Origin: Candidatus Omnitrophota bacterium
GTDB lineage: Bacteria; Omnitrophota; Gorgyraeia; JAZDFF01
Assembly (NCBI GenBank): GCA_043808095.1
Contig: JAZDFF010000040.1
Span: 1,908-65,907 of the forward strand
Reading direction: 5' to 3'
Length of the DNA stretch: 64,000 nt
The position numbers were made by a program, and so were the translations under genes. The notes under the pieces were generated by a model, which was not told the DNA's origin, searched no databases, and saw only the letters and a program-made list of their open reading frames with translations. Of the stretch, positions 1 through 61,316 are shown piece by piece (the first letter of the stretch is position 1; every line of letters starts with the position of its first letter).

Positions 1-149
1 GTGAGAATACCAACTTCTTTCTAAATCTCATCTTTTCCATTTATTTTCAATTATATTTTAAAACAAAACCCTACGCAAGTATTTTACTTACATAGGGTTA
101 TGTTTTAGTGGCTCCCCCGCGAGGACTCGAACCTCGGACATGGTGGTTA

Positions 150-510
150 CAAGTGACCCGAAATTGCTTTCGGACTTGGACTATCTCTTTACCATGACTA
201 ACGAAGCGGCTCCCTCGCTTTCGCTCGGGATAAAACTGTACTTCGTCCAGTTTTAGGTAGTGGGTGCATAGTCTCTGCACCTGCCTTCGCTAAAGCATCG
301 GCAGGCAAGCCTTCTGCCTGCTAGCCTCATGCGAGGATCGGCTCAGGATTACCCCAGCTGTTTCGTTTTGCTGCGCAAAAGCGAAACAAAACGACAGGGG
401 CTTCCCTGAATTCTCCCACAGTTTCAACTACGGTTTCCCGTAGAAGCTGCGCTTTGTAAGATCCTTCGGGTTTCGCCCTCAGGATGCTCGTCCGCCTTCG
501 GCGGACTCGC
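150..510 (-). ncRNA. Group I self-splicing intron (361 nt) in the anticodon loop of tRNA-Asn, between nt 35 and 36.
   Basis: The 5' exon ends in U and the intron ends in G (omega-G) immediately before the 3' exon. The conserved P7 core strands are present: GCAGAGACTA (R element) and AAGAGATAGTCC (S element). GNRA-type capped helices are also present. No ORF lies inside the intron. Confidence 0.75.
345..396 (-). repeat. A roughly 48-nt imperfect palindromic module (CCCCnGCTGnTTCGTTTTGCTnCGCAAAAGCGAAnCAAAACG..GGGG) inserted in a peripheral loop of the group I intron.
   Basis: A second copy lies at 43982..44033 in the same orientation and carries compensatory substitutions that preserve the hairpin. 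Confidence 0.6.
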
Positions 511-592
511 ACAGCCACCCGCTCTACCAACTGAGCTACAGGGGAATATTAAAAAATCAAATATCAAAAATCAAAAATAAAAATTATAAATA

Positions 593-3154: not shown

Positions 3155-4159
3155 CTAGTTATAAAAGCTCTGATAAGCCAAAAGTAAACGTTCGTTGTTA
3201 GAACCTATTTCTTTGAAATAACGTTTTATCTCTAATAAATCATAAATATAAACCCTATTTCCATTTTTTATTTTTGGCGTAAAACCTAAGTTTCTGAATA
3301 TCAGTACTACTGATTTGAATAAAGGTTTAGAACAATTCGTAAAACAAATTCTCAAATATCTATATTGCTTTTCGTTAATCTTGTATGTATGAAAATAAGT
3401 ACCGCCATCTGTATCCATAAGGCCTTTTAAACATGCCCGTTGAAATTCCTTATTTTTTTTAATCCAATTCGGAATATCAATCTTATTTCTGATTTTATCT
3501 CCTATTTTAAACCCCTGGCTATTTAAGAATTTCACTAATTCTACGCTTGAAACAATTATATCAGCTCCATTATTTCCTCTATTAATATGGCGTGTTGAAT
3601 CAAGTAAAAATAATTCTTTTATCAGTTTTGCACAATAATCAGAATAATTTTTATCTTTTATATTATTATATGATATTGCAATCTGGTATTTACTCTTAAC
3701 CCCTCCATCTCCCATAAATATGCCGATAAACTCAGCTAATTTAATAGAAGGAGACGGATAAGAAATTATTTTTTTTACCGTAACCCCAAATCTTTTAAAA
3801 TATTCCGGATTTGTTTTTATTAATTCTTGAGTAGTTAAGCCGCCCTTTTTTCTTCCTTCATAAGTACCCGGATTTCCATATAACTTAAGCCTGGCTTTAG
3901 CGCCTAATCTTCCGGCATTAGAAGAATTCCAAGATTCTGGTAGAAAATTAGCAGTTTTGGGTATTAAAATTCCCGTCAGTTTCTCTAACTTTAAGGCAGA
4001 TTCATAACTCATATTAAATTTTTCTCTTTCCCAATCACATAATGTCCTTGGGTGAATATTACAAATCTTGGTTATCCCGACCCGATGTTTAACTAATTTT
4101 GATTTATTCCTTATTATAAATTCTCTCTGTTTGCCCTTTGGAAATGATAATCTAGCCAT
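3155..4159 (-). CDS. Free-standing double-motif LAGLIDADG homing-endonuclease-like protein with an N-terminal HTH-like region.
   Basis: Two LAGLIDADG motifs are present: LAEFIGIFMGDGGV and ACLKGLMDTDGGTY. The stop codon lies 13 nt upstream of the 5' end of tRNA-Ser(GCU) on the same strand. Confidence 0.75.
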   Translation of the reverse strand: MARLSFPKGKQREFIIRNKSKLVKHRVGITKICNIHPRTLCDWEREKFNMSYESALKLEKLTGILIPKTANFLPESWNSSNAGRLGAKARLKLYGNPGTYEGRKKGGLTTQELIKTNPEYFKRFGVTVKKIISYPSPSIKLAEFIGIFMGDGGVKSKYQIAISYNNIKDKNYSDYCAKLIKELFLLDSTRHINRGNNGADIIVSSVELVKFLNSQGFKIGDKIRNKIDIPNWIKKNKEFQRACLKGLMDTDGGTYFHTYKINEKQYRYLRICFTNCSKPLFKSVVLIFRNLGFTPKIKNGNRVYIYDLLEIKRYFKEIGSNNERLLLAYQSFYN

Positions 4160-4221: not shown

Positions 4222-4680
4222 CTATTTAGTGCGTTTGCGGGAAAAAAAATCTTTCAGTAAAGAGCTGCTCTCTCTTTCTAAAACACCCTTCGTAACTTTT
4301 ATGCGATGATTTAGTTTTTTGTTGTCTACTATATTGATTACTGAGCCGCACGCCCCTGCCTTAGGGTCGGCTGCGCCGTAAATTAGGCGCTTAATCCGCG
4401 CTAAAACAAGTGCGCCTGCACACATACTGCAGGGCTCAATTGTAACATATAATGATGCCTCGGGCAACCACTTACTAGCCAGGTAATTTGTAGCACTGGT
4501 AAGGGTAATCATCTCGGCATGGGCAGTTGAATCTTTGAGTCTTTCTACCTGATTATGGCCCCGGGCAATGATTTTCCGGTCATGGACAATGACGCAGCCA
4601 ACCGGGACCTCGTCTTCTTCGGCTGCAATATACGCCTCCTTAAGCGCCTCTTGCATATAAATCTCATCAATCTTGCCCAT
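4222..4680 (-). CDS. tadA: tRNA-specific adenosine(34) deaminase TadA.
   Basis: It has the CDA-fold zinc motifs HAE and PCxxC (HAEMITL, PCSMCAGAL). It lies directly beside tRNA-Arg(ACG), which is its substrate. Confidence 0.9.
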   Translation of the reverse strand: MGKIDEIYMQEALKEAYIAAEEDEVPVGCVIVHDRKIIARGHNQVERLKDSTAHAEMITLTSATNYLASKWLPEASLYVTIEPCSMCAGALVLARIKRLIYGAADPKAGACGSVINIVDNKKLNHRIKVTKGVLERESSSLLKDFFSRKRTK

Positions 4681-4713
4681 AACCCTTAGTTCTTAGTTCT
4701 TAAATCTGAAGTA

Positions 4714-4760
4714 ATGCGCCCGGCTGGAATCGAACCTGCAACAACTTGCTCCGCCCCTCG
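4714..4760 (-). pseudogene. Degenerate 3' portion of a tRNA-Arg(ACG)-like gene: variable loop, T-arm and acceptor 3' strand.
   Basis: Reverse complement GGAGCAAGTTGTTGCAGGTTCGATTCCAGCCGGGCGCA aligns with positions 36-73 of the intact tRNA-Arg, with a mismatch in the T-stem. It is preceded by a CCTCG..CGAGG hairpin. Confidence 0.55.
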
Positions 4761-4800
4761 CTTTTACATTTAGCGGAATCCCGAGGTTTTATCAATAAAG

Positions 4801-4874
4801 TGCGCCTGGCTGGATTTGAACCAGCAACAACCAGCTCCGTAGGCTGATGCTCTATCCAGTTGAGCTACAGGCGC
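4801..4874 (-). tRNA. tRNA-Arg(ACG).
   Basis: Reverse complement: GCGCCTG TA GCTC AACTGGATA GAGC A TCAGC CTACGGA GCTGG TTGTT GCTGG TTCAAAT CCAGC CAGGCGC A. No CCA is encoded. Confidence 0.88.
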
Positions 4875-4899
4875 ATTAAAATTATTACAAATAACTAAC

Positions 4900-5092
4900 T
4901 CAGCTCGGGACGGAGTGCAAATAAAAACCGAGGGACTCCGTAGGCTGATGCTCTATCCTTCGCCGTAGGCGAATCCGCCTGCGGCGGAAATTGCCCGCCA
5001 CTAAAACTTTGCCGCCACAAATCTTAGGCGGCTCGCCAATGAATTGTGGCGAGGCGGGTCCGCCAATCTTTGTGGCGGAAGCTACAGGCGCA
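4900..5092 (-). pseudogene. tRNA-Arg(ACG)-like 5' portion carrying two inserts: a 120-nt insert in the D-loop and a 32-nt insert after the anticodon loop. It has no T-arm.
   Basis: Reverse complement: TGCGCCTGTAGCT [120-nt insert] GGATAGAGC A TCAGC CTACGG [AGTCCCTCGGTTTTTATTTGCACTCCGTCCCG] A GCTGA. The insert pairs with the anticodon (ACGGAGT/ACTCCGT), as pre-tRNA introns do. Confidence 0.55.
4960..5079 (-). repeat. A 120-nt multi-hairpin insertion element, copy 1. It is built from CCGCCA-loop-TGGCGG hairpins.
   Basis: It is near-identical (about 3 mismatches) to 16212..16331, and both copies interrupt the D-loop of a tRNA-Arg-like 5' fragment at exactly the same position. Confidence 0.7.
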
Positions 5093-5103
5093 AACGTAAT
5101 TAT

Positions 5104-5397
5104 TTAGCCAAATTTAGCCAGCTGAATCAAATTAATACAATTGACTAAAGATAACGCTGCAAGTATCGGGCCAAATATAGCCCTTTTTTCAAATATCCAG
5201 TCATCAATAACATTAATCTCGCCTTCGATTGACGATAAAAGTATTGTCCCTGAGCCAAAATTTATATTGAGAATCTCTTCTAATTTCGTATATGTCTTAG
5301 GCGAAAACATATAAATCAAAATTAATACAAATGAGGCCATGGAGGCCAGGAAAAGAAACACCGTTAACATCTGCAAGATACTATCTATGCCAAACAT
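5104..5397 (-). CDS. Small hypothetical membrane protein with two or three predicted TM helices.
   Basis: It is an ORF with hydrophobic segments, and I found no recognisable domain. Confidence 0.4.
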   Translation of the reverse strand: MFGIDSILQMLTVFLFLASMASFVLILIYMFSPKTYTKLEEILNINFGSGTILLSSIEGEINVIDDWIFEKRAIFGPILAALSLVNCINLIQLAKFG

Positions 5398-7685: not shown

Positions 7686-7769
7686 GGAGAGGGAGGGATT
7701 CGAACCCTCGGACCCTTGCGGATCACATGTTCTCCAGACATGCCGGTTAAACCACTCCCGAACCTCTCC
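7682..7769 (-). tRNA. tRNA-Ser(GGA), type II, with CCA encoded.
   Basis: Reverse complement: GGAGAGG TT CGGGAGTGGTTTAACCG G CATGT CTGGAGA ACATG + variable arm + GAGGGTTCGAATCCCTC CCTCTCC G CCA. Confidence 0.85.
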
Positions 7770-7842
7770 AAAAAATTGCTTTTTATTTTTTGGATTTCGA
7801 GTCCGCCAATGCTTTAATGGCGGACGAGAAATCTTAATTACC
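7770..7842 (-). promoter_or_regulatory. tRNA-proximal 5' element, copy directly upstream of tRNA-Ser(GGA).
   Basis: It is near-identical to 8201..8277 and 5985..6058. Confidence 0.5.
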
Positions 7843-8100
7843 TTTGATCAACGCTAATTTCTTCTTACGGCTAAATCTCTTTACCTCTAATTCTCTTTTC
7901 CTGGCTAAATTATAATTTTCACACAATTCTTTATGTAGCAAAATCAAGGGCTTGCGAAAACGCGTGTAACGACATTTATTCGAAGTATTATGTTCATGAA
8001 TACGTTGTTCTACATTTATGGAAATACCTACATATAAGGTGTTATCTCGACATTCTGCTATATAAACGTACCAGGGTTTAGAATAATTAACCTTAGCCAC
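7834..8100 (-). CDS. Small GIY-YIG nuclease-domain protein of the YhbQ/UPF0213 type.
   Basis: It has the motif block WYVYIAECRDNTLYVGISINVEQRIHEHN. It sits between two copies of an approximately 85-bp direct repeat. Confidence 0.75.
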   Translation of the reverse strand: MAKVNYSKPWYVYIAECRDNTLYVGISINVEQRIHEHNTSNKCRYTRFRKPLILLHKELCENYNLARKRELEVKRFSRKKKLALIKGN

Positions 8101-8182: not shown

Positions 8183-8277
8183 TGTCCACTCCCGAACCTC
8201 TCCAAAAAATTGCTTTTTATTTTTTGGATTTCGAGTCCGCCAATGCTTTAATGGCGGACGAGAAATCTATTTTCCCT
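8183..8277 (-). repeat. Second copy of the tRNA-Ser(GGA) 5' end (GGAGAGGTTCGGGAGTGG) plus the tRNA-proximal element. Together with 7752..7842 it forms an approximately 85-bp direct repeat flanking the GIY-YIG gene.
   Basis: The sequence identity to 7752..7842 is directly visible. The tRNA fragment is followed by an unrelated hairpin (ACATTTTCG..CGAAAATGT) rather than a D-arm. Confidence 0.7.
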
Positions 8278-8280
8278 ATC

Positions 8281-8949
8281 TCAAAAAAGCTGTTTAAATA
8301 CGGCGTATAGGATATTGTCAGCCACACGGATAAAATCAACGAAGAAATTGGTTAAAGAAAATCCATCAAAGATGAGTTTTATCAGAATGGCAAGTAATAC
8401 CAGGTTAAGGATATAAATTACAGAAAAACCGAAGACATAACTTACCCTTAGGAATTCTCCTTGTTTAGAACGTAGCGATTTCGCGCTAAAGACAAGATGA
8501 AGGCATATAGTAAAACCAAAAAGAAAGAAAAAATATTTAACCAGGTCTAAGGATTTAAATGTTAATGATAGTATTAAATACGCAAGAAACAGGACAATAG
8601 TATAAATGGGTAATAGATACGGCGCTACCTTTATCAATGGTTTAAAGAAACCAAACGTCAGCTCTAATAATTTCTGGCCCCTGGCATAAACAATTTGTGG
8701 CTCCCAGATGAATGCATAAATTATCAAAAAACTGACGAGCCCCGCCCAGAAATAATTCTGAAAAGGAGCTTCAATAACACTAAATTCACGCAAAAACGCT
8801 ACAGTTACGGAATAGACAAACGGCAAGAGGCACATCCCCAATAAAAACTTAACTACCGCAAAAATTTTGCCTGTCAAGCCGGATCTTTTGACTGATGCGC
8901 TATCTTCTTTTTTAGGAGATATTTTCTTTTCCATCTTAAATGAGCGCAT
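8281..8949 (-). CDS. Hypothetical polytopic membrane protein.
   Basis: Multiple hydrophobic helices are present. The first five codons (MRSFK) come from the family-A 5'-UTR repeat, so the true start is probably the downstream MEKK. Confidence 0.5.
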   Translation of the reverse strand: MRSFKMEKKISPKKEDSASVKRSGLTGKIFAVVKFLLGMCLLPFVYSVTVAFLREFSVIEAPFQNYFWAGLVSFLIIYAFIWEPQIVYARGQKLLELTFGFFKPLIKVAPYLLPIYTIVLFLAYLILSLTFKSLDLVKYFFFLFGFTICLHLVFSAKSLRSKQGEFLRVSYVFGFSVIYILNLVLLAILIKLIFDGFSLTNFFVDFIRVADNILYAVFKQLF

Positions 8950-9020
8950 AACTTACGGAGCGGAAATCCGCGAAGTAAGTTATTTGCGCGAATTTAATCC
9001 CTCACCTTTTTACCCTACAC
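8936..9020 (-). repeat. Family-A structured 5'-UTR repeat (AACTTACGGAGC..GCGAAGTAAGTT hairpin, then GCGCGAATTAATCCC).
   Basis: Other copies lie at 21786..21858, 38022..38110, 55944..56062 and 60150..60258. Each is within about 100 nt upstream of a gene start. Confidence 0.6.
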
Positions 9021-10485: not shown

Positions 10486-11949
10486 CTAGCCCTTTATTAC
10501 ACCTAAAGGCCTCATCCTGCAGACGCGTTTTGAAATGCCGGCATTATGCACTACATCTACCACATCATTTACATCTTTATAGGCCTGGGGCGCTTCTTCA
10601 ACAATAGTCCCCCGCCCGGTTGCCTTAACTGTAATGCCTTTTGATTCTAATTCCTTTAATAACGCACTCAAATCAATGGTTTTAAGCGCACCACTTCGGG
10701 ATTTAAGCCGGCCTGCGCCATGGCAGGTCGACCCGAAGGTCTCTTCCATTGCCTTTTGCGTACCCACTAAAAGATAGGAATTCCTGCCCATATCTCCGGG
10801 GATAATCACCGGCTGGCCGGTCTTTTTGTATCGGGCAGGTAATGCTGGATTTCCCGGGCCAAAGGCGCGCGTAGCGCCTTTTCTATGGATACATAGATTT
10901 TTCTCTTTACCGTCAACCGTATGCCTCTCCATCTTTGCGATATTATGGGCCACGTCATAAATTAAAAACATGCCCATATCCTGCCAGGAACGGTTAAAAA
11001 ACTTCTCAAATACCTCGCGGGTCAAATGCATCAGGCATTGCCGATTTGCCCAGGCGTAATTTGCCGCGCATCTCATGGCCCCAAAATAAGCCTTACCTTC
11101 GGACGAATTAACCGGAGCACAGGCAAGCTGCTTGTCCGGGACATTGATATTATATTTCGCCAGGCAATGAATCATGGTCTTGAGAGAGTCATCGCAGACC
11201 TGATAACCTAAGCCCCGTGAACCGGAATGTATCATAATCGTAATCTGGCCTTCGGTTAAGCCAAATTCATCGCAAAGATCGCGCTCATACAGCCGGTCAA
11301 TTACCTGGACCTCTATGAAATGATTTCCCGAGCCGAGTGTCCCGGATTGGGCCTTGCCTCTAACATAAGCCCTATCTGAAACTGCCGAAGGATCTGCTCC
11401 GGCAATTGCACCAAATTCTTCGGTACACTCTAAATCATCGCTAGTTCCGTAGCCTTTTTCAACCGCCCACTTTGCACCTTTTACTAAAATTTCTTTTTCT
11501 TCTCTGGTAGTGACCTTTATATCGCCTTTTGAACCTATACCTGTAGGTATGTCATTAAATAGGGCATAGACCAAATTCTTGATTTTATCTTTTATCTCAT
11601 CAAATTGAAAATTAGTTTTAAGGAGTCTTATCCCGCAATTTATGTCATAGCCCACGCCTCCGGGCGAAATTACTCCGCCTTCCTCAGGGTCAGTTGCCGC
11701 TACCCCTCCGATACAAAATCCATATCCCCAATGGATATCCGGCATAGCCAGGGAATAATTTACAATCCCCGGTAAAAATGCGACATTTGCCACCTGTTCC
11801 AGGGCTCTATCCTGGCGGATATCCTTTAGCAGTTTCTCATCGGCATAGATAATTCCCGGAACCCGCATTCCGGGTTTATAACTCTTGGGTATACGCCAAC
11901 GATAATCGTCAATCTTCTCTAATGGTACTTGCCCGATCTCAGACATCAA
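10486..11949 (-). CDS. rtcB: RNA-splicing ligase RtcB (3'-phosphate/5'-OH ligase).
   Basis: Conserved RtcB blocks are present: NCGIRLL, HSGSRGLG and CHGAGR. Confidence 0.92.
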   Translation of the reverse strand: MMSEIGQVPLEKIDDYRWRIPKSYKPGMRVPGIIYADEKLLKDIRQDRALEQVANVAFLPGIVNYSLAMPDIHWGYGFCIGGVAATDPEEGGVISPGGVGYDINCGIRLLKTNFQFDEIKDKIKNLVYALFNDIPTGIGSKGDIKVTTREEKEILVKGAKWAVEKGYGTSDDLECTEEFGAIAGADPSAVSDRAYVRGKAQSGTLGSGNHFIEVQVIDRLYERDLCDEFGLTEGQITIMIHSGSRGLGYQVCDDSLKTMIHCLAKYNINVPDKQLACAPVNSSEGKAYFGAMRCAANYAWANRQCLMHLTREVFEKFFNRSWQDMGMFLIYDVAHNIAKMERHTVDGKEKNLCIHRKGATRAFGPGNPALPARYKKTGQPVIIPGDMGRNSYLLVGTQKAMEETFGSTCHGAGRLKSRSGALKTIDLSALLKELESKGITVKATGRGTIVEEAPQAYKDVNDVVDVVHNAGISKRVCRMRPLGVIKG

Positions 11950-12364
11950 AAATCACCTCAGCCTGCCAACCTGATTTAAGTTCCCTTAATTGCAACTGGT
12001 GATAAGTAGCGGCCTTAATCTCAGTGTTTACTCTGTAATTATTCATATCTTCGCCAACGGCAGTTGCCTGCAGATTGTTTTTATCTAATTTTTCAATCTT
12101 AAAATCCGAGAAAATTAATTCTTTGGCGGCGGATAAAGAAAGTAATTCATTTAGCCAGTTTATGAAAAGCTCCTCTAAATTATCCGCCTTTTGTTTAACC
12201 GTGATATTTCTGGTATCTGGCATCTGGCATCTCGTATCTGGCTTTTTTTCAGCCATAATCTCAAACATTGCCGTGGCGGAATTTTTAAATAATTCTTTTA
12301 AATCTTTGGCCTTTACCCTGATACAGATATCGGCGGTGTGTTCGATTTGTTCGTAGTTTTTCAT
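11939..12364 (-). CDS. Archease, the RtcB activator.
   Basis: It has the N-terminal EHTADI motif. It overlaps the rtcB start as in archaeal and eukaryotic archease-RtcB pairs. It contains a short internal PDTR tandem duplication. Confidence 0.85.
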   Translation of the reverse strand: MKNYEQIEHTADICIRVKAKDLKELFKNSATAMFEIMAEKKPDTRCQMPDTRNITVKQKADNLEELFINWLNELLSLSAAKELIFSDFKIEKLDKNNLQATAVGEDMNNYRVNTEIKAATYHQLQLRELKSGWQAEVIFDV

Positions 12365-12503
12365 AACGCGAATTATCGCTAATCCCTGCCTGACGGTAGG
12401 CAGGAAACGCGAATTATCGTTAATATTATTAGCGTATATTTCCGCCGAAGGCGGATTAGCCTTTGGCTAAAGCGTTAGATTCGCGTAAATTAGCGTTTTT
12501 AAA

Positions 12504-12576
12504 TGAGCCGCGAAGGAATCGAACCTTCAACCCCCAGATTAAGAGTCTGATGCTCTACCGATTGAGCTAGCGGCCC
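12504..12576 (-). tRNA. tRNA-Lys(CUU).
   Basis: Reverse complement: GGGCCGC TA GCTC AATCGGTA GAGC A TCAGA CTCTTAA TCTGG GGGTT GAAGG TTCGATT CCTTC GCGGCTC A. Confidence 0.88.
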
Positions 12577-13240
12577 TTATTCTTTTTACGACACCCTCAA
12601 TCCAACCGAGTATTCTATATAAAAGATTCTTATCGCAGACTTCAATTTTTATTGTCCCTTGATATAAAATATTTTTGCGATGTCCCGTACCTTCTCTTTT
12701 AATATAACTTTTGCCAAATTGTAAAATTGGCAGACCAATTATATCTGACCAGAATTTTTTTATTTTTAATTCATCTTGTCCAGAATGAATATTGAGATAA
12801 ACTTTAAACCTCTCCTCAGGAATATTGCATATCTCCCTAAACCATCTCATCATAAAATGTATCAATTCGGGATCAGAATTAGAGACACCGACTCTATTCT
12901 TTTTATTTCCCTCTGCCCAATATAGCATTATACCAGCTAACTTAAATTCATTTTTGCTCAATAAATCGATGTCTAATTTTGCTTTTTCCTTGATTTCTAC
13001 AATCTCTTTATTTCTTCTTGCCTGCGTAGCTTTCGACCCAAGCAATCTCCCCCTATAACTGCCATCCTTAAAAAGCCTATCCAACCTATCTTTCTGCTTT
13101 GCCGTCAACTCTATATCCCTACACCAATCACTAATTGTACTTTTTGAGATACTGGACGGCATTCTCTGCCCTATCTCTTTATAACTCAAACCTTGCGATC
13201 TCAAGTTTCTAACTAACTTCTGTTTCCGCCAACTTTTCAT
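12539..13240 (-). CDS. Single-motif LAGLIDADG-like homing-endonuclease-family protein with an N-terminal HTH-like region.
   Basis: It has a LAGIMLYWAEGNK block and an HTH-like N-terminus (ISDWCRD) resembling the ORF at 3155..4159. The reading frame runs through the first 38 nt of tRNA-Lys and terminates at the UAA inside the tRNA anticodon loop. Confidence 0.5.
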   Translation of the reverse strand: MKSWRKQKLVRNLRSQGLSYKEIGQRMPSSISKSTISDWCRDIELTAKQKDRLDRLFKDGSYRGRLLGSKATQARRNKEIVEIKEKAKLDIDLLSKNEFKLAGIMLYWAEGNKKNRVGVSNSDPELIHFMMRWFREICNIPEERFKVYLNIHSGQDELKIKKFWSDIIGLPILQFGKSYIKREGTGHRKNILYQGTIKIEVCDKNLLYRILGWIEGVVKRIRAASSIGRASDS

Positions 13241-13346: not shown

Positions 13347-13620
13347 CTAATGGCCCGTTTGTCATATTTTAACACAGATTAGCACAGATGAAAAGAAACA
13401 GATTAGCACAGATGGAGGATAACAAAATACTTTTAAGCGTTTATTTTTCTGATAGATAGCCATTGTTACTCCCTCTCCCTCGACTTCGTCCTTCGACGCG
13501 CTCGCCTTTGGCGAGCTTGCTCAGGAAGACCCTGAGTTTGTCGAATGGGTCGCTCGGGATGGTGAGCGAAGTCGAACCACTAAACTGCTTAATTATTTTA
13601 TAATAAGACTGATAATAGCT

Positions 13621-15804: not shown

Positions 15805-16011
15805 ACCCTCCTTGTTATCTTCTTATTGCTACTTGCTACTCTCTACTCGCTACTTTACTCTATCTGTGCCCATCTTGTATCTCTTAATCTGTGATAATCT
15901 GTGTATTAAAAATGCGCCTAGCTGGTCTGCTTCGCTCAAATGTTTTCACTTTGAGCTCCGCAGAACCATTTCTACGAAGCTCCCGCATAAAAATGTTGGA
16001 GCGAAGTAGAA

Positions 16012-16034
16012 TGCGCCTGGCTGGACTCGAACCA
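16012..16034 (-). pseudogene. tRNA-Arg(ACG)-like T-loop and acceptor 3' fragment (GGTTCGAGTCCAGCCAGGCGCA) abutting tRNA-Arg(UCG).
   Basis: It matches positions 52-73 of tRNA-Arg(ACG) at 4801..4874, with T-loop variation. Confidence 0.5.
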
Positions 16035-16041
16035 ATTAAAA

Positions 16042-16115
16042 CGCCCCTGGAGGGAGTTGAACCCCCAACGCCTAGCTCCGAAGGCTAGCGCTCTATCCAG
16101 TTGAGCTACAGGGGC
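16042..16115 (-). tRNA. tRNA-Arg(UCG).
   Basis: Reverse complement: GCCCCTG TA GCTC AACTGGATA GAGC G CTAGC CTTCGGA GCTAG GCGTT GGGGG TTCAACT CCCTC CAGGGGC G. Confidence 0.85.
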
Positions 16116-16344
16116 TACTAATTATATCGCGATATCCAGTTCCGTCCCTCGACTTCGCTCGGGATGGAATCCTGAGTTAAACGAAGGATTCCTAAGACTG
16201 GCGCTCTATCCTTCGCCGTAGGCGAATCCGCTTGCGGCGGAAATTGCCCCCACTAAAACTTTGCCGCCACAAATCTTAGGCGGCTCGCCAATGAATTGTG
16301 GCGAGGCGGGTCCGCCAATCTTTGTGGCGGAAGCTATAGGCGCA
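16116..16344 (-). pseudogene. Second tRNA-Arg-like 5' portion carrying the same 120-nt D-loop insert (16212..16331) and a roughly 50-nt insert in the anticodon-stem region.
   Basis: Reverse complement: TGCGCCTATAGCT [120-nt insert] GGATAGAGC G CCAGT CTTAGGA[..GGAATCC..GGATTCC..] ACTGG. The architecture is the same as at 4900..5092. Confidence 0.5.
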
Positions 16345-17070: not shown

Positions 17071-17140
17071 CACCAATTATCACGAATTACACACTAATTT
17101 CCACTAATTCATTTTGTGTAAATTTGTGTTTTCTGCCTGT
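17071..17140. promoter_or_regulatory. AATTNGTG / TTTGTGTAAATTTGTGT repeat array immediately 5' of the radical SAM gene.
   Basis: Similar arrays lie at 45518..45603, 54660..54751 and 61197..61300, each directly upstream of a gene start. A related CAGATTAGCACAGAT family lies at 13370..13440, 15855..15910 and 53085..53290. Confidence 0.4.
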
Positions 17141-29762: not shown

Positions 29763-30518
29763 TCACCTGTTCTTTTTTATTGGCTCATCTATAACTGAGC
29801 CATGTAAATAATTTGCTTGGAGAGTATTACTTCCGTCGTATTCTGCGATGATGTCTTCGTTGTCGTAGATATAGCGGGTAATTACTCCATTGACATTCTT
29901 TTCAATCCTTCTTCCTATGCCGTCGTAGGTGTACTCTGCAAAGGTTAAGTCAGGGAAGTCAATGCGGATTAACTGATTCTCGACATCGTAAGTATAGTTG
30001 GTAGTCTCTAAGGTAGATTTGTTCTGCTTAGAAATTAGATTCCCATTGTCATCATAGGCGTAAGTATAGTTATCATCTTCCAGTAGTCTATTGGCCTCAT
30101 CATAGACATAGGTTAAAGGATTGCGGTTACCTACTGGGTCATAGGTGTAGTTTTCAGTAGGAATTGTGGGGTGCGTAGCGCCGATTAGTCGGTATAAATC
30201 ATCATAGCCATAGTCGTGCAGGCCAGTTAAATCAGTCATATCTTCCCGGTTGCCGACGTTATCATAGGTGTAGGTGTATGAATTAATAGTAACCAGATTA
30301 CTGAGCACAGAAACCTGATTATCTGTAGATTCTAGATGCAAGATACCAGATGCTAGTTTATCTCTGGTGACCTTGTGACTTGGTGACGTGGTGACCAAGG
30401 TAAGTAATCTACTTGCTAAGTCGTAAGTGTAGGCGGTTTGAGTGCGATGAATAAGATGATAAAGGTAATAGCTATTGTCTAGGAGTTTATCGGTTGAGAT
30501 ATAGTTTAGGTCTTTCAT
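29763..30518 (-). pseudogene. Orphan internal Rhs/YD-repeat fragment, a diverged duplicate of part of the large rhs gene.
   Basis: Its protein aligns block-by-block with a roughly 250-residue internal region of the 31071..36635 product (YTYDxVGNRE..DLTGLHDYGYDDLYRL..DEPI). Shared DNA stretches include TTCTAGATGCAAGATACCAGAT. Confidence 0.75.
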
Positions 30519-30551
30519 AGATTATTTCGTAATTTAATATGATTTAAGGAG

Positions 30552-31061
30552 TTATCGCGTTCTGACACTGTTTTTTCTGTTTTTTATTTTGTAAAACTTT
30601 AATATTGGCACCAAAAGAAATTTAAATAACTTCAATGCCTTAAATAATCTACTAGTTAAAAAAACTTTCTTGGTAATCTCTTTACTATATTGTTCAGCGG
30701 TCTTTTCCCAACCTTCTTTTTTATAACCATGACCTATTCTCTGAACATGATGACCTATTTCGTGAAAGAGCGTAGTTGCAAGTAATAATTTAGGAATTAT
30801 TGGAAAAATAATAAAAAAAATCCGAGGCATCTTGTAGAACATCCCAGATACATTTAGAACTATCTCTATATTTTTAGCATTTTGATATCCATAATAGAGA
30901 CCCGCAGCATCTTTAACATTTCTCTCTACAGGATAGTCAATTATTGTTATTTTATTTATTTTATACAAATCCTCTTGAGGGACAAATTTGAGTAATTCTT
31001 CAATGTTTTTTCTAAAGTTAAATTTTATACTTTTGTCTAGATTAATGATCTCAATTATCAT
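30552..31061 (-). CDS. Small HExxH-motif protein (LFHEIGHHV) immediately downstream of the rhs gene. It may be an Rhs-associated immunity or accessory protein.
   Basis: The HEIGHH motif is visible. The position relative to the Rhs C-terminal tip is the only other support. Confidence 0.45.
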   Translation of the reverse strand: MIIEIINLDKSIKFNFRKNIEELLKFVPQEDLYKINKITIIDYPVERNVKDAAGLYYGYQNAKNIEIVLNVSGMFYKMPRIFFIIFPIIPKLLLATTLFHEIGHHVQRIGHGYKKEGWEKTAEQYSKEITKKVFLTSRLFKALKLFKFLLVPILKFYKIKNRKNSVRTR

Positions 31062-31070
31062 CTCTGCTAA

Positions 31071-34000
31071 TTAAATTCCAAACACATGACTTAACCATTC
31101 AGCTATATCATCAATCAGTTTTTTCCATTTATCAGGCGGAAGTGGAGGAATAGGATTATGAGTAGCAGGTATCGTTGGTGGAATTTTGTAATATCCTGTC
31201 CTTTTACCTTTACCAGCTCCAGGATATGGTTCAGGTGAAGGGCCTTTAATAGCTTGATACAAAGCGTATCCACCAACTGCGGCAATAATAGCAACTTTCC
31301 CAAACTGTGTAGGTTCGGATAATGCCATTGTCGTACCAACAATAATCCAAGGAGGCATACACATTACGTTACCATAAGGATCGACATAAATTACAGGATT
31401 ATTTAACACATAGGGATAAAGGTTTAATGTGAGGGAATTAGTAAGAAAACCTTTAAACGAGTCTTCCTGCAAAAACCTCCCTATCCTCGCATCATAATAC
31501 CTGGCTCGATAGTAATACAAGCCTGTTTCAGAGTCGAATTCACGTCCAGTATAGGTAAACGGATTAGACAGTGTGCCGGTTTGGTTTACGATATTGCCAA
31601 AGGAATCATAGGTATACGTTCGCACTACAGCGCCGGTATTGTCTGTCAGAGCTGTTATACTGCCTAAGCCATCTACGTGATAGTAGTAAAGTTGTCCTCC
31701 CCTCTCCATCCTCAATGGCTCATCTATCCCAGGGCCGTGGAGGTATTTGGCGGTTAGGGTGTTGGTTACATCATATTCAGCAAGGATATCCTCGTTGTCG
31801 TAGACATAGCGAGTAATTACTTCATTTACATTCTTTTCGATTCTTCTGCCGAGGCCATCATAAATATAGTCAATAGTCGATGGTCCATAGTCAATAGAAA
31901 TTAACTGATTCTCGACATTGTAACCATAGGTAGTAACATCTGACGGATTGCTCTTATTGGTTTTAGTGATAAGGTTGCCGTTGTCGTCATATATATAGGT
32001 ATAAGTCCCATCGTCTACCAGTCGATTAGCGACATCGTAAACAAAACTTGCCGGATTGCGGTTACCCACTGGGTCATAGGTGTAGTCTTCAGTCGGGAAG
32101 GTCGGATGAGTTGCCTGAGTTAGTCTATATAAATCATCATAGCCATAGTCATGCAGGCCGGTTAAATCAGTCATCTCTTCCCGGTTACCGACAGAGTCGT
32201 AGGTGTAGGTGTAAGAGTCAAGAGTTGATTGTGTATCTTTAGATTCTAGATGCAAGATACCAGATACTAGTTTATTGTGTGATTTGGGATTTAAACTTGT
32301 TACCATACTTAACAGCCGGCTGGCCAAGTCGTATCCGTAGGCAGTCTGGGTATTGTTGGCTAAGATTAAGGCAGTCCTGCGAGAAAGCTGGTCATAACCA
32401 AAATGACTAATCAGTTGATCAGCGGCGGTCTTGATGTCGATGAGACGGTTTAGGTCATCATAAATATACTTGGTAACAACTGATTGAGGGTCAGTTAAAG
32501 TAAGGCGATTAGAGTTTTTATCATAGGTATAGCTGATAGTAGTGGCTGGCTGATGTCCCAAATTCGCAGTGGTTGCTTGAGTGAGTCTACCAGCTAAATC
32601 ATAATTCATTGTCAGGCCTGAATCAGGATTGGTTACTGAGGTCAGATTATTTACAGAGTCATAACCATTGGTTACATTTAGACCTGGCCCGGATTTGTTA
32701 GTCAGACGGTTTATCTGGTCATAGGTAAAGCTAATGGTTTGGCCTTTAAAGTCAATGACAGTCCCTAAGTTTCTATTTAAGTCATAGCTAAAGGTCTTGG
32801 TCTTGGTTAGAGGGTTAGCGATGGTTTTAAGCTGGTTTATTTCATCATAAGTAAAGTTTGTTTCGTGGAGTTTCGAATCAATGATTTTTTTCAGGCTCCC
32901 TGCCTCATCGTATTGATACTGGGTAGTTTTATTATCAGCATCTACTACTTTTTTCAGGCGGTTCATTGAGTCGTATTCAAAGGTAGTGGTATTGTTGTCG
33001 GCATCAGTTGAGGAAGTAATGTTACCGGCGTTATCATAGGCCAGGGTAGTGGTATGGCTTAAGGGGTCAGTAATGGTTAAGAGATTTTCTGTAACCGGGT
33101 CATAGGTAAAATTAGTCTCATTTTGAAGCGGGGTGCCAAAGCCAGAGATAATCTTAGACAGAAGCGAATAAGGACTATTATACTCCATCTTGGTAATATT
33201 GCCAAGGGCATCGGTTATCTGGATGGGATTTCCTTTTGTGTCATAATCAATATCAGTAAGATTAGATTCTGGGTCTAAGATGCTAGATACTTGATTAAAG
33301 TTCGGCTCATAGGTAAAGGTAGTGGTGGCGGAGATTGCATTCTCAGTTGAGGTCCGCAGATTACCTTTAGCATCATAAGTCATGGTTACTGTAGAGCTGT
33401 TAGGCCGGGTAATTTTTGTGGGATTATTATTTACGTCCCTTTCGATTGTGGTAGTCTGATTTAAGGCATCAATAATTTTTGCATAAGAGCCGAATTTTGA
33501 GGTCTGGGAGGTGGTTGTGTAGCCTTTGCCGTCGATAATCGTTTCTACGATATCAGCCGGCCGCACTACCGGTGCGGGATTCTGTGGTGTGCCTACACCA
33601 GGCGCTAAATCATTAATCAGGCCTTGCACTTCAGAAGGAAAAAACTGAATTATCTCCTGAGGGCTATTTGGAAAAAGCATCCGATTTACCCGGCCATAAT
33701 TATCATATTGGTATTGGGTGGTGAGATTCCGCTCATTGGTAGCGGCAGTTAAAAAATGACTATTATAGGTAAATGCCTTGGTAGTAGTGTCTGGATTAGT
33801 TATTCCGGATAGGTCGCCACTGGCATCAATGTTAAACTGAGTAATTCTACCTGCAGGGTCTTTTATGGATTGGAGCTTGCCTGATGTATTATAGATAAAT
33901 TCATATTTGCCGCCAGCAGGTAAAATAATCTCACTTATCTCTTCGGCTCTTCCGTCAGAATTGGCATCTATATAAATATATTGCGTAGTGTTGCCATTTC

Positions 34001-36643: not shown

Positions 36644-38029
36644 TTACCTTTTTGATTTTAATCTTTTGCTGGTTAGCCGGGAAATCTTTTTCTTTAAGAC
36701 CCTTGCCGGAACGCCTACTACAACCGAATAATCTTTAACATTACAACCGGCAGTCACTACGCTTCCTGCTCCGGTTACTGCTTTTTTCCCGACTTTTACC
36801 GGTGCAACTAAAACCGTATCCGAGCCGATAAAAGCGCCTTTTCCGATTTTAGTTACATTTTTCTTACGGCCGTCGTAATTTGCGGTAACAGTGCCTGCCC
36901 CGATGTTAACACTATCTCCTACCTTGGCGTCGCCAAGATAGCTGAAATGCCTTACCTTAGTAAACCTGCCGACTCGCGTGCGGTTCAGTTCCGTAAAATT
37001 TCCGATTGAGGCATCATCTTCTAAGACCGTGCCCGGCCGGAGATGGCTAAAAGGCCCGACGGAACAACGGCGACCGATAACTACATCGTGCTCTATAAAG
37101 GTATAGGGATAAATTACAGAATTCCCGCCAATCTTCACATTCGGATAAATATATGTATTATTGGGGTCTAAGATGTTTACGCCTTTTTCTATAAACCCAA
37201 CCAAAATTCTGCGGCGGATTATATCAGAGGCCTTGTTTAAATCTTCTCTCGTATTAACACCTTGGGCCTGGGTATCGTCTTCTATCCTTAACGCCTGGAT
37301 GTGATAACCCTGACTGTCAAGGCACTCGATTATATCCGTAAGATAATATTCCTTTTTCTGCTCGTTAAGTTTAATATGGCCCAGATTGGAAAATAAGACG
37401 TCCTTCTTAAAGCAGTATACGCCTGTGTTTATCTCGTTTATGCGTTTTTGTTCCGGCGAAGCGTCTTTCTCTTCGACGATCTTTTTGACATCATTATTTT
37501 TGTCTCTGATAATCCTACCGTAACCGGCAGGGTCACCAACCAAGGCAGTCAATAACGTGCAAGCGGCTCTGGTATTAGAGTGGACTTCAATAAGCGAAAA
37601 TAAAGTTTCTTTCCTTATCAGAGGATGGTCTCCGTAGAAGATTAGCACATCCGAAGCATCCTTCTTAAAAAGTCCGGCCGTCGCTTTTATAGCATCAGCT
37701 GTACCTAAAAGCCTCCTCTGAAGGCAAAGCCTTATATCTTTTTTCTTTTGATAATTTTTAATAAATACTTTAACTAAATCTTTTTTATAACCGATAACAA
37801 GAATAATCCTTTTTAATTTGCGGGTGGCGCTTAACAGGTCCAGGATATAGCCTAACATAGGCTTGCCAAAAATAGGCTGAAGGACCTTCGGGATTCCGGA
37901 TTTAAGTCTTGTGCTTTTGCCTGCTGCTAAAACAATTGCATCTAGATCTTGCATTTTAAAAACCTGATACCTAAGAGTTGATTTGTATATTTTAAAAAGT
38001 TGCCCGGTCTGGACTCTTAATGAGACCAC
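36644..38029 (-). CDS. glmU: Bifunctional GlcNAc-1-P uridyltransferase / GlcN-1-P acetyltransferase GlmU.
   Basis: It has an N-terminal nucleotidyltransferase domain (LAAGKSTRLKSGIPKVL) and a C-terminal hexapeptide acetyltransferase domain. The true start is probably the internal MQDLDAIV (about 37954), because the annotated N-terminus overlaps the family-A UTR repeat. Confidence 0.88.
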   Translation of the reverse strand: MVSLRVQTGQLFKIYKSTLRYQVFKMQDLDAIVLAAGKSTRLKSGIPKVLQPIFGKPMLGYILDLLSATRKLKRIILVIGYKKDLVKVFIKNYQKKKDIRLCLQRRLLGTADAIKATAGLFKKDASDVLIFYGDHPLIRKETLFSLIEVHSNTRAACTLLTALVGDPAGYGRIIRDKNNDVKKIVEEKDASPEQKRINEINTGVYCFKKDVLFSNLGHIKLNEQKKEYYLTDIIECLDSQGYHIQALRIEDDTQAQGVNTREDLNKASDIIRRRILVGFIEKGVNILDPNNTYIYPNVKIGGNSVIYPYTFIEHDVVIGRRCSVGPFSHLRPGTVLEDDASIGNFTELNRTRVGRFTKVRHFSYLGDAKVGDSVNIGAGTVTANYDGRKKNVTKIGKGAFIGSDTVLVAPVKVGKKAVTGAGSVVTAGCNVKDYSVVVGVPARVLKKKISRLTSKRLKSKR

Positions 38030-38141
38030 AACTTACGGAGCGTTAACGAACGTAAGTTGTCTGGTCGAATTAATCCCGAGTCCGCCATTGATTCAGTGGC
38101 GGACGAGGGAGAACCAGAACATTTATTTATGGTAAATTTAG

Positions 38142-41611: not shown

Positions 41612-41824
41612 TTTATTTACTGATAATTATTCTCAAACGCGAATTTTCGCCAATCAAACGCAAATAGTCGCTAATTTTATTCGCGACCATTAGCGTTCCC
41701 GCCACAAAGATTGGCGGGTCCGCCTCCGCCATAATAATTGGCGGATGCGCCAATATTTGTGGTGCAAAAGAATTGTGGCGGAAGATTCGCGACCATTAGC
41801 GTTAAGAAGATTTTTTCAAAGTAT

Positions 41825-45514: not shown

Positions 45515-45603
45515 CTTTACACTAATTTACACTAATCAAACACTGATATTCACGAATATTTTATTTGTGTTTATTCGTGTGCAATTTGTGGTAATTCGTG
45601 ATT

Positions 45604-54635: not shown

Positions 54636-54751
54636 ACTTTATCTGTAAGACTAGCGAGAAAATCATTTTGGCACGAATCTACACGAACCACACACAAATT
54701 TTCACGAATAAATTCGTGTAAATTAGGCTCTTAATTCGTAGGAATTCGTGT

Positions 54752-55954: not shown

Positions 55955-56093
55955 AACTTACGGAGCACAACGTGCGACGTAAGTTATCTGCGCGAATTAA
56001 TCCCGAAGCTTAAGCTAAAATTATCGAAGAAAATTTTAGCTTGTCTAAGCGAGGGACATGTTAATCCTGACACTAACGTATCTTCGGGGTCAT

Positions 56094-60135: not shown

Positions 60136-60352
60136 TAATCGATCTCCGTTTAATGAGCAGATAACTTACGCGAGCAATGTAAACGAGCGTAAATTATAGG
60201 CCGTCAGGCCGTCTGCGAATTAACCCCGAGCCTTCTAGGCGAGGGGTCTAGATAATTTACGCTAGTAGTGCGGCGGCCTTGTTCATTTGTGGCCGCATAA
60301 ATGTGGTAATTATAACAAATAGGCCTGGTGTAAACAAGATTAAACAATTTTT

Positions 60353-61219: not shown

Positions 61220-61316
61220 TAATTACACACGAATTCCCACCAATAAAATTCGTGTAAATTTGTGTGAAATTTGTGTTCATTTGTGTAGAAATATTGTTTT
61301 TAAACAGTTTAAATCT

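Follow-up and report, generated by a model that had tools for sequence, protein, structure and literature searches.

How an intact tRNA gene comes to lie between the two ends of another gene for the same tRNA is the question raised by a locus in a Candidatus Omnitrophota bacterium (GenBank assembly GCA_043808095.1, contig JAZDFF010000040.1), within a stretch of 64,000 nucleotides (nt) that was analysed as a whole and is called the window here. On the minus strand of the window, from 5091 to 4715 (locus 1), an outer tRNA-Arg(ACG) gene encloses a complete inner tRNA-Arg(ACG) gene at 4874-4801. A first-pass annotation of this DNA, each of whose listed sequence features was found again on that strand, had offered three explanations: a relic of repeated insertion at the tRNA gene, a tRNA-derived miniature mobile element with the acceptor stem as its inverted repeats, and a fragmented or permuted pre-tRNA whose maturation would need an RNA ligase. 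The first comes closest, in that insertions have split a resident gene, of which the outer pieces remain. The pieces come from either end of the tRNA-Arg(ACG) gene that is resident at this orthologous position, now a pseudogene that carries two unrelated inserts, and it is highly probable that this gene is disrupted and non-functional rather than the source of a split tRNA. The locus looks like the work of an undescribed tRNA-targeting element, not like a split tRNA needing ligation, and the account favoured here, to which we give a probability of roughly 0.55, is that it is the scar of a tRNA-Arg replacement by a site-specific, tRNA-carrying insert. The architecture is real, recurrent and unusual; the copies in the window are decayed scars, and the mechanism is inferred.

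The outer 5' piece is identical to the inner tRNA at 34 of 34 comparable positions, the outer 3' part together with the preceding GCAAG matches it at 29 of 35, and the full 379 nt of the locus fold with a z-score of -5.2 against shuffled sequences, with the outer acceptor strands paired; the layout is therefore not due to chance. The GCAAG is a decayed 3' strand of the anticodon stem, and direct reading of the outer gene gives one mismatch in the T-stem, A-A, and two in the anticodon stem. The inner gene, the sole tRNA called at the locus by ARAGORN and Rfam, is taken to be the functional one. Only 15-66 nt separate the outer pieces from the inner tRNA. The outer gene begins 12 nt past the stop codon of an open reading frame (ORF) of 97 amino acids (aa) and ends 33 nt before tadA. 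An Rfam search of 4500-5300 at E <= 10 detected no known RNA family or ribozyme in the insert, and a scan of the locus for the sigma-70 consensus gave no promoter-like site, the -10-like boxes in the linkers (TAATAAT) having been judged by eye only. A second locus on the minus strand, from 16343 to 15913 (locus 2), has the same layout around a tRNA-Arg(TCG) gene. The parts of both loci are listed in Table 1.

Table 1. Parts of the two nested tRNA-Arg loci and a third copy of the D-loop hairpin array, with positions in the window (CM, covariance model of the anticodon-loop element).
Feature	Position	Strand	Sequence, identity or evidence
Locus 1, 5' end of outer tRNA-Arg(ACG) pseudogene: acceptor 5' strand, positions 8-9, D-stem 5' strand	5080..5091	-	GCGCCTGTAGCT = GCGCCTG TA GCT; 12/12 identical to inner tRNA
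Locus 1, GC-rich hairpin array in outer D-loop, 122 nt	4958..5079	-	In place of CAACTG
Locus 1, outer D-loop end, D-stem 3' strand, anticodon stem 5' strand and anticodon loop	4936..4957	-	GATAGAGCATCAGCCTACGGAG = GATAGAGC A TCAGC CT A CGGAG; ends in left CGGAG repeat; 22/22 identical to inner tRNA
Locus 1, anticodon-loop element, left half	4904..4935	-	Arm X TCCCTCG, loop, ACTCCG(T) block, arm Y TCCCGAG; CM match 4899-4941
Locus 1, cargo left linker	4875..4903	-	AT-rich, TAATAAT
Locus 1, cargo: intact inner tRNA-Arg(ACG)	4801..4874	-	ARAGORN; Rfam RF00005, 66.9 bits
Locus 1, cargo right linker	4786..4800	-	CTTTATTGATAAAAC
Locus 1, anticodon-loop element, right half	4745..4785	-	Arm Y' CTCGGGA, TTCCGC block, spacer, arm X' CGAGGGG, right CGGAG, GCAAG; CM match 4749-4840
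Locus 1, outer 3' part	4715..4744	-	Variable loop TTGTT, T-arm GCAGG TTCGATT CCAGC, acceptor CGGGCGC, discriminator A
Locus 2, outer 5' part	16136..16343	-	GCGCCTA TA GCT, 121-nt D-loop array, GATAGAGC G CCAGT CT TAGGAA
Locus 2, anticodon-loop element, internally deleted	within 16136..16343	-	TCCTTCG..AGGATTCCA TCCCGAG CGAAG T CGAGGGA, then CGGAA CTGG; CM match 16140-16194
Locus 2, intact inner tRNA-Arg(TCG)	16042..16115	-	ARAGORN; Rfam
Locus 2, 3' remnant of an intermediate tRNA-Arg generation	16012..16036	-	T-arm and acceptor CAGGCGC A
Locus 2, older 3' remnant	15913..15925	-	CCAGC TAGGCGC A
Third array copy, diverged, colinear, at an intergenic non-tRNA site	41697..41785	+	18-nt direct repeat ATTCGCGACCATTAGCGT on both flanks

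The status of the outer gene is revealed by loci fetched from Candidatus Omnitrophota relatives, which are designated by L numbers. All 16 relatives fetched retain the order tRNA-Arg(ACG), tadA, tRNA-Ser(GCT). In the nearest of them (L024-L030, seven loci of four TadA lineages, with TadA 79-85% identical), the site is occupied by a single clean tRNA with no flanking pieces, and in L025 a homologue of the 97-aa ORF (E = 6e-9) lies directly 5' of the functional tRNA. The outer 5' end in the window thus stands at the same spot as the L025 tRNA, so that the outer gene is the resident and all that lies between its halves has been inserted. The acceptor strands accordingly belong to a resident gene behind the same upstream ORF, which speaks against a tRNA-derived miniature inverted-repeat transposable element (MITE) bounded by acceptor-stem repeats. 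Absence of the pieces from close relatives had been named in advance as counter-evidence to a functional split tRNA, and absent they are, at seven orthologous loci of four TadA lineages. One of these loci, L027, comes from a strain variant of a close relative. There, the C-terminal end of a tyrosine integrase (2-382; Pfam, 7e-17) directly adjoins tRNA-Arg(ACG) (359-434) on its 5' side, in place of the small membrane ORF of the sister contigs L025, L026 and L028, and the 5' end of the tRNA is the exact point at which homology to L025 stops.

Farther Omnitrophota, whose TadA is 66-68% identical to that of the window, possess an upstream tRNA-Arg copy bearing the same anticodon-loop insert. In the upstream tRNA-Arg(ACG) copy of three lineages (L001, L036/37 and L013), the insert is an empty shell that reads ACGGAG, then TCCCTCG .. 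GGACTTCG TCCCGAG CGAAA CTCGGGA TTCCG .. CGAGGG, then ACGGAG; in L013, a Hainich groundwater contig, the shell is tandemly doubled. The left half of the insert at locus 1 is homologous to the inserts of L001, L036, L013 and L039, and the inner tRNA occupies the place of the CGAAA loop. The earlier description of a 32-nt intron-like insert followed by the stem strand A GCTGA was therefore a mis-parse: the letters are present, but GCTGA only stands in place of the hairpin loop and does not form the anticodon stem as its 3' strand, and the insert extends as far as CGAGGGG (about 4750), with the inner tRNA inside it. This parse, with an intron at position 37/38, was rejected because the inserts of the same four relatives continue to CGAGGGR-CGGAG, with the true 3' stem strand after it. 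The complementarity reported between the trailer of the 5' piece (TCCCTCG..TCCCGAG) and the leader of the 3' piece (CTCGGGA..CGAGGG) holds, and is that of the central hairpin of a conserved anticodon-loop element.

The shell is a palindrome of about 70 nt, composed of the 7-bp arms X (TCCCTCG) and X' (CGAGGGR) and the arms Y (TCCCGAG) and Y' (CTCGGGA). On either side of it stands a direct repeat of 5 nt, CGGAG, which corresponds to tRNA positions 35-39. At locus 1, the central Y/Y' hairpin encloses a cargo of 118 nt, consisting of an AT-rich linker, the complete tRNA-Arg(ACG) and a short trailer; the whole anticodon-loop insert measures about 190 nt and has no ORF. The direct repeat tracks the target allele, being CGGAA where position 39 is A, as at locus 2, and CGGAG elsewhere. 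The right copy at locus 2 is an intact CGGAA and the left one has mutated to AGGAA; that the repeat follows the target allele argues for target duplication. Its terminal inverted repeats, its allele-following 5-nt repeat and its lack of coding capacity give the shell the traits of a MITE.

Each side of the shell also contains a guide-like block, CTCCG on the left and TTCCG on the right, complementary to the left and right NCGGAG, respectively. By direct reading, the left guide matches its own flank as ACGGAGT/ACTCCGT at locus 1 (the pairing of the ACTCCG(T) block with ACGGAG(T) that had been described before), as GGAATCC/GGATTCC at locus 2, as TCGAGT/ACTCGA, the flank minus one G, in L039, and as CGGAGTCC/GGACTTCG in L001; one pair of the right-side guide is C-G, U-A or U-G among the shell copies. 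Two mutually exclusive foldings are each fully formed in five of five copies. The rod folding (X/X' with Y/Y') is 100% paired and invariant, and the guide-hairpin folding has 94% of its cells paired, compared with 25-52% when the partners are slid. Either RNA or single-stranded DNA could be the setting in which the guide pairings act. A covariance model built from the five copies and searched against the 64-kb window and 58 kb of relatives gave significant matches only at tRNA-Arg anticodon-loop sites, all in tRNA sense; in the same DNA, no copy at an unrelated site or in the opposite orientation was significant. When metagenomes were scanned for tRNA sequence joined to the first part of the shell, one match was true and ten were due to chance.

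These blocks recall IS200/IS605 elements and PATEs, which recognise their cleavage sites through internal guide pairing and make no target duplication. The shell is likewise hairpin-rich, has a fixed orientation to an asymmetric 5-6-nt target, and contains blocks complementary to its left flank and right end. It departs from them in its allele-following repeat, as expected of a true target duplication, and in a single central hairpin in place of two subterminal ones; no Y1 transposase was found among the 46 window ORFs covered by the domain scan. Group I introns are another point of comparison, as their occurrence in the anticodon loops of bacterial tRNA genes has been surveyed (PMC13011429). 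The shell shares with them its position in the anticodon loop and an internal block that, in the manner of P1, is complementary to the 3' end of the 5' exon, and the window itself has such an intron in tRNA-Asn; unlike them, it is only about 70 nt long, lacks a catalytic core and is flanked by a direct repeat. The group I model RF00028 gave no match at 4500-5300 at E <= 10, and the same model detects the tRNA-Asn intron of the window.

On a quite unlikely reading, the shell would be a new kind of insert in bacterial tRNA genes, either a guide-directed element or a protein-dependent intron, which homes to NCGGAG in tRNA-Arg anticodon loops through pairing of its two guide blocks with the target. 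It would be excised symmetrically, as RNA or single-stranded DNA, with the ends joined by the conserved RtcB-archease pair nearby, and would optionally hold a tRNA gene in its central hairpin; recently invaded genes would retain their function, the outer tRNA of L039 being an example, and the window copies would be old and decayed. This reading is kept alive by L039 itself, the outer tRNA of which has four of four stems perfect and is called tRNA-Arg by ARAGORN once its sequence is reconstructed. Were the shell spliced as RNA, it would be the first non-self-splicing bacterial tRNA intron and would provide a housekeeping substrate for bacterial RtcB-archease, a long-standing question.

The related proposal that the window holds a functional interrupted pre-tRNA, in which RNase P and RNase Z would free the inner tRNA, RtcB with archease would join the outer halves, and a further endonuclease is proposed to cut out the shell and the D-loop array, is very unlikely. 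The proximity of RtcB (10486-11949) and archease (11939-12364) to the locus was noted at the outset and is confirmed by Pfam, and the order radical SAM, tRNA-Arg(TCG), tRNA-Lys, archease(-RtcB) is kept in L039 and L041. Two further points favour the proposal: L039 has a perfect outer tRNA after removal of the insert, and the shell is pseudo-twofold symmetric with each NCGGAG paired to a guide block, recalling splicing-endonuclease substrates. The inserts also sit in loops, like archaeal non-canonical introns. Archaeal tRNA genes can be multi-intron, split or permuted, with bulge-helix-bulge (BHB) junctions and joining by RtcB (PMC4090602, PMC3978253); the shared features are interruptions of the D-loop, anticodon loop and T-arm, complementary trailer and leader sequences, and RtcB with archease, whereas the present locus is bacterial, has no BHB and no EndA in the scanned ORFs, and combines decayed outer copies with an intact isoacceptor in every case. 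In the window, the outer stems are mismatched and the D-loop holds a 122-nt array that belongs to a dispersed repeat; L001 and L013 lack the 3' halves, and the nearest relatives have no pieces. No 3-4-3 BHB could be drawn, since the empty shell folds either with an 8-bp closing helix adjacent to the anticodon stem and a 7-nt/3-nt internal loop (the rod model) or as two guide hairpins. The domain scan of the window ORFs gave no EndA domain, and Rfam gave no ribozyme at the locus. The ends left by RNase P and RNase Z (5'-P and 3'-OH) are, moreover, not RtcB substrates and would not suit such a joining step. The ligase-dependent pre-tRNA of the first-pass annotation thus finds no support in this window, on the same counts of mismatched stems, D-loop array, nested intact isoacceptor, missing BHB and no EndA among the 46 ORFs scanned. 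Anticodon-stem differences between loci 1 and 2 that appear compensatory were also considered as a sign of selection on the pieces and rejected: the CCAGT/ACTGG stem occurs in tRNA-Arg(ACG) of L025 and L030 and in both tRNA-Arg(TCG) copies of L041, and GCAAG in the functional tRNA of L029, so that these variants are uninformative on such selection.

Locus 2 repeats the arrangement at a different isoacceptor and points to more than one round of it. Its older remnant TAGGCGC is the perfect partner of the outer GCGCCTA and the nearer CAGGCGC is not, and the locus therefore holds at least three generations of tRNA-Arg. Its inner tRNA is placed at position 43/44. In L039/40, the orthologue of locus 2, a filled shell of the locus 1 type has tRNA-Arg(TCG) between TCCCGAG and CTCGGGA, whereas in L041 a tandem pseudo-copy stands behind an intact tRNA-Arg(TCG) and bears, at the same position of the D-loop, an insert of 63 nt with two hairpins. 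Locus 2 also bears on the idea that the upstream anticodon arm is a cis-acting tRNA mimic, serving as a leader of tRNA-Arg-tadA that would bind TadA, ArgRS or RNase P in feedback or processing control. The product of tadA, directly downstream of locus 1, edits A34 of exactly tRNA-Arg(ACG), and a 5' piece with an anticodon arm lies upstream of tRNA-Arg-tadA in the window, L001, L013, L031 and L036. The same architecture nevertheless occurs at the tRNA-Arg(TCG) locus, where there is no tadA; it is not present in L033 or in the seven nearest-relative loci (four TadA lineages), and the insert disrupts the anticodon loop, all of which makes a mimic most improbable.

In the replacement account, the shell would be a site-specific insertion element that enters the anticodon loop of tRNA-Arg genes, with targeting that may employ the guide-like blocks CTCCG and TTCCG. 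As its insertion would destroy an essential tRNA-Arg gene, it would persist only in lineages that have a replacement tRNA-Arg, either as cargo or nearby; the inner gene would then be the working tRNA, and the outer gene would decay and gather hairpin repeats. Locus 2 would represent at least three such replacement generations at the tRNA-Arg(TCG) site, and ligation of the outer halves would be neither needed nor expected. Decay of the outer gene is seen as stem mismatches in the window, as loss of the outer 3' half in L001 and L013, and in the pieceless nearest relatives; only a stub is left in L034, and L033 has no pieces. Measured against the sole tRNA-Arg(ACG) of the piece-free L033/L034, outer alleles of the L001 clade are 1-4 nt apart and inner alleles 7-12 nt. 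The inner tRNA of the window is 5-6 nt from the inner tRNAs of L001 and L031 and 7-14 nt from the tRNAs of the nearest relatives. These distances, of low resolution in 74-nt sequences, are consistent with a newcomer allele nested in a resident gene.

Several observations weigh against this account. The cargo is not tied to the shell, since the inner tRNA of the L001 clade (as in L031/32 and L036/37) lies within a separate hairpin, GTCCCGAC/GTCGGGAC, that takes the place of the outer T-arm and has the outer acceptor 3' strand after it, and that of locus 2 sits at 43/44. In both filled copies, the cargo is the isoacceptor of its target (ACG in ACG, TCG in TCG), so that local duplication fits as well as travelling cargo, and the complete identity of the 5' piece to the inner tRNA requires gene conversion or recent duplication. 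The shell copies total just six across five genomes, formal covariation amounts to one compensatory pair (C-G / U-A / U-G) in n=5 sequences and is not significant, and no transposase, integrase, reverse transcriptase or HUH protein was found among the 46 window ORFs scanned.

Some of these points would suit a purely local rearrangement, in which tandem duplication was followed by template switching or illegitimate recombination at fragile palindromes, with the hairpins as hot spots. Tandem pairs of intact and pseudo copies exist in L041 and L013, the inner tRNA is found in three places among the lineages, two of them hairpin loops, and hairpin-within-hairpin nesting is general in this genome; the invariable match of cargo and target isoacceptors and the identity of the 5' piece to the inner tRNA would also be expected. 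Such a history is nonetheless quite unlikely, as it leaves unexplained why one shell, with one repeat, orientation and position, recurs in five genomes and at two loci, in tRNA-Arg genes of both the ACG and the TCG type, and why inner and outer alleles differ as much as those of different clades.

Integration by a tyrosine integrase is a more serious competitor, although it too is unlikely. Islands and prophages with tyrosine integrases often insert at the anticodon loop of tRNA genes and regenerate the gene, and Williams (in 2002) is said to have distinguished sublocation classes of integration within tRNA genes. Here, elements of this kind would have regenerated tRNA-Arg, and imprecise deletion would then have left fragments of the attL/attR type. 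An integrase does abut the 5' end of tRNA-Arg(ACG) in L027, and stand-alone 3' remnants are common (16036-16012 and 15925-15913 at locus 2, 38016-37999 by tRNA-Gln, and by tRNA-Ser in L005); classical integration probably contributes to these. The junction CGAGGGR-CGGAG-TCCCTCG that circularisation of the insert would produce, a sequence present in L013, resembles a recombinase core, with 7-bp inverted arms and a 5-nt overlap. However, no element body lies in the 15-66 nt between the pieces and the intact gene, and the 5' and 3' break points are exactly complementary within one hairpin, at locus 1 and independently in L039, which indicates one insertion and not two integrations. The tRNA arms around CGGAG are unlike the element arms, contrary to what shared core-binding sites would require, no integrase was found among the scanned ORFs of the window, and scans of viral contigs for the attP-like circular junction and for the right half of the shell gave no matches.

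With these integrative elements, the tRNA-Arg insert shares insertion into a tRNA gene, duplication of a short junction sequence, retention of an intact gene and displaced fragments. It differs in being only about 190 nt long, in encoding no protein, and in holding a whole rather than a partial tRNA gene, which is nested in the central hairpin while the disrupted gene stays as two complementary halves. Its parts thus resemble tRNA-targeting integrative elements, palindromic repeats and guide-using IS200/IS605 derivatives, and no class fully fits. In the literature, no report was found of a tRNA gene nested in a hairpin of another tRNA's anticodon-loop insert, and nothing comparable was found on Omnitrophota tRNA introns or on palindromic elements in anticodon loops.

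If the replacement account is true, a selfish insert can occupy an essential single-copy tRNA gene by bringing, or being rescued by, a replacement tRNA, and the host comes to depend on the newcomer allele. This would offer uncultivated bacteria with small genomes a compact way of turning over tRNA genes horizontally and would account for the large differences in tRNA-Arg alleles between close Omnitrophota relatives. The target-complementary blocks, if real, would suggest a nucleic-acid-guided choice of site, which is of mechanistic and possibly practical interest.

The second insert, in the D-loop, is a different matter. The multi-hairpin insert first described as 120 nt is present and measures 122 nt. 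The arrays of locus 1 (5079-4958) and locus 2 (16331-16211) are 98% identical, with much more divergence between the adjoining tRNA parts of the two loci. The array is not confined to tRNA genes, and its occurrence at many non-tRNA sites had been named beforehand as the mark of an ordinary MITE: a diverged copy lies at a non-tRNA site (Table 1) and hairpin modules are dispersed through the window: perfect GC-rich hairpins of its module types form 25 clusters, compared with about 2.4 in shuffled sequences. Two other Omnitrophota metagenome-assembled genomes (MAGs) have a 19-mer of the array in hairpins that adjoin tRNA-Ser, and a contig scan with this 19-mer gave two relevant and ten chance GC-rich matches. 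The array is a member of a dispersed family of GC-rich palindromic repeats and is unrelated to the anticodon-loop insert. Repetitive extragenic palindromic sequences and bacterial interspersed mosaic elements (REP/BIME), MITEs, Correia elements and Rickettsia palindromic elements are non-coding, hairpin-forming and multi-copy, and can sit inside genes, RNA genes included. The D-loop array resembles them in being dispersed, in having a non-tRNA copy and in modules common to several genomes. The shell is unlike such short palindromic repeats: in the DNA sampled, it is not dispersed and has one orientation and one target, and it contains target-complementary blocks and can hold a tRNA.

Hairpins of these kinds accompany other tRNA fragments of the window. 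A pseudo tRNA-Ser 5' piece, GGAGAGTTGGCAGAGC, at 5741-5646 on the minus strand has D-loop hairpins GTCCGCC..GGCGGAC and GCCCGCC..GGCGGGC; 3' of it stands CCCCTCG ATAAT CTCGGGA, and later GGAGTCCCGAGG..CGAGGGG immediately ahead of tRNA-Ser(CGA). A pseudo tRNA-Lys 5' fragment, GGGCCATTAGCTCAAT, at 13356-13254 (minus strand) has a 75-nt D-loop hairpin, CCCGAATG..CATTCGGGG, and lies directly upstream of a 233-aa ORF (12539-13240) that has no Pfam match; upstream of the fragment, at 13476-13559, a TCCCGAG..CGAGGGA hairpin has nested hairpins inside. Past the intact tRNA-Gln, at 38120-37999 (minus strand), a pseudo T-arm has an insert in its T-loop, reading CTGGTTC, then TCCCTCG TCCGCCA..TGGCGGA CTCGGGA TTAA as the insert, then TTCGACCAGAC, and the last 18 nt of tRNA-Gln have an exact second copy at 38016-37999. 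A similar arrangement of pseudo T-arm and 3' copy follows tRNA-Ser(TGA) in L005 (6540-6800). The 26-nt repeat TTAAATGAGCGCATAACTTACGGAGC and its variants occur at 8936-8961, 38016-38041, 55941-55966 and 60149-60174, one copy overlapping the duplicated 3' end of tRNA-Gln.

The gene content of the window is bacterial, with RecR, DnaX, TadA, SerRS, lipid A enzymes, BamA, DnaB and others, and all tRNA genes and all Pfam-assigned ORFs lie on the minus strand. Its TadA and radical SAM protein are 100% identical to proteins of a Candidatus Omnitrophota MAG, which speaks against an origin in the Candidate Phyla Radiation. The only mobile-element-like ORFs among the 46 scanned are those of two homing endonuclease families. 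A 334-aa LAGLIDADG_3 ORF (3155-4159, minus strand) lies between tadA and tRNA-Ser(GCT), where the relatives have a gap of a few tens to about 110 nt; it is not there in any relative fetched and gives the impression of a free-standing homing-endonuclease gene that has entered the tRNA cluster. An 88-aa GIY-YIG ORF (7834-8100, minus strand) lies between 92-nt direct repeats (7752-7843 and 8186-8277, 96% identical), each of which consists of the upstream region and the first 18 nt of tRNA-Ser(GGA); this is a local D-loop insertion that has left a 5' tRNA fragment upstream of the intact tRNA-Ser(GGA). A small GIY-YIG ORF (2344-2604) also adjoins tRNA-Ser(GCT) in L001. Free-standing homing endonuclease genes occur in tRNA clusters, as in the case of phage T4 SegB. 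The GIY-YIG ORF at the D-loop of tRNA-Ser(GGA) and the LAGLIDADG ORF by tRNA-Ser(GCT) resemble such genes, and the tRNA-Arg insert differs from them in having no endonuclease gene inside. Through homing endonucleases, a broken tRNA gene could come to be repaired with a foreign allele.

The tRNA-Asn(GUU) gene (109-545, minus strand) contains a group I intron of 361 nt (150-510) at position 35/36, which matches RF00028 with 61.8 bits at 157-468. ARAGORN missed the gene and calls its spliced form tRNA-Asn(gtt). The intron contains hairpins of the families found in the tRNA-Arg inserts, GTCCGCC..GGCGGAC at 490-506 and TCCCGAGCGAAAGCGAGGGA at 211-230. In Patescibacteria, too, tRNA-Asn genes are reported to contain group I introns (PMC13011429). 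Pseudo-pieces of tRNA genes, and missed genes such as this one, distort the tRNA inventories of MAGs.

Two further kinds of repeat occur away from the tRNA genes discussed. Heptamer-like arrays of CACGAAT, CACTAAT, CGCTAAT and CGCGAAT are intergenic and lie upstream of several genes (17071-17129, 41638-41696, 45520-45578, 54672-54730, 61207-61265 and 12380-12500); they may be binding sites of a regulator or another repeat family. At 29763-32225, long direct repeats that are 72-76% identical and spaced 1935 nt apart lie in an RHS-repeat gene region by a 1854-aa ORF and may represent a cassette duplication of the polymorphic-toxin type.

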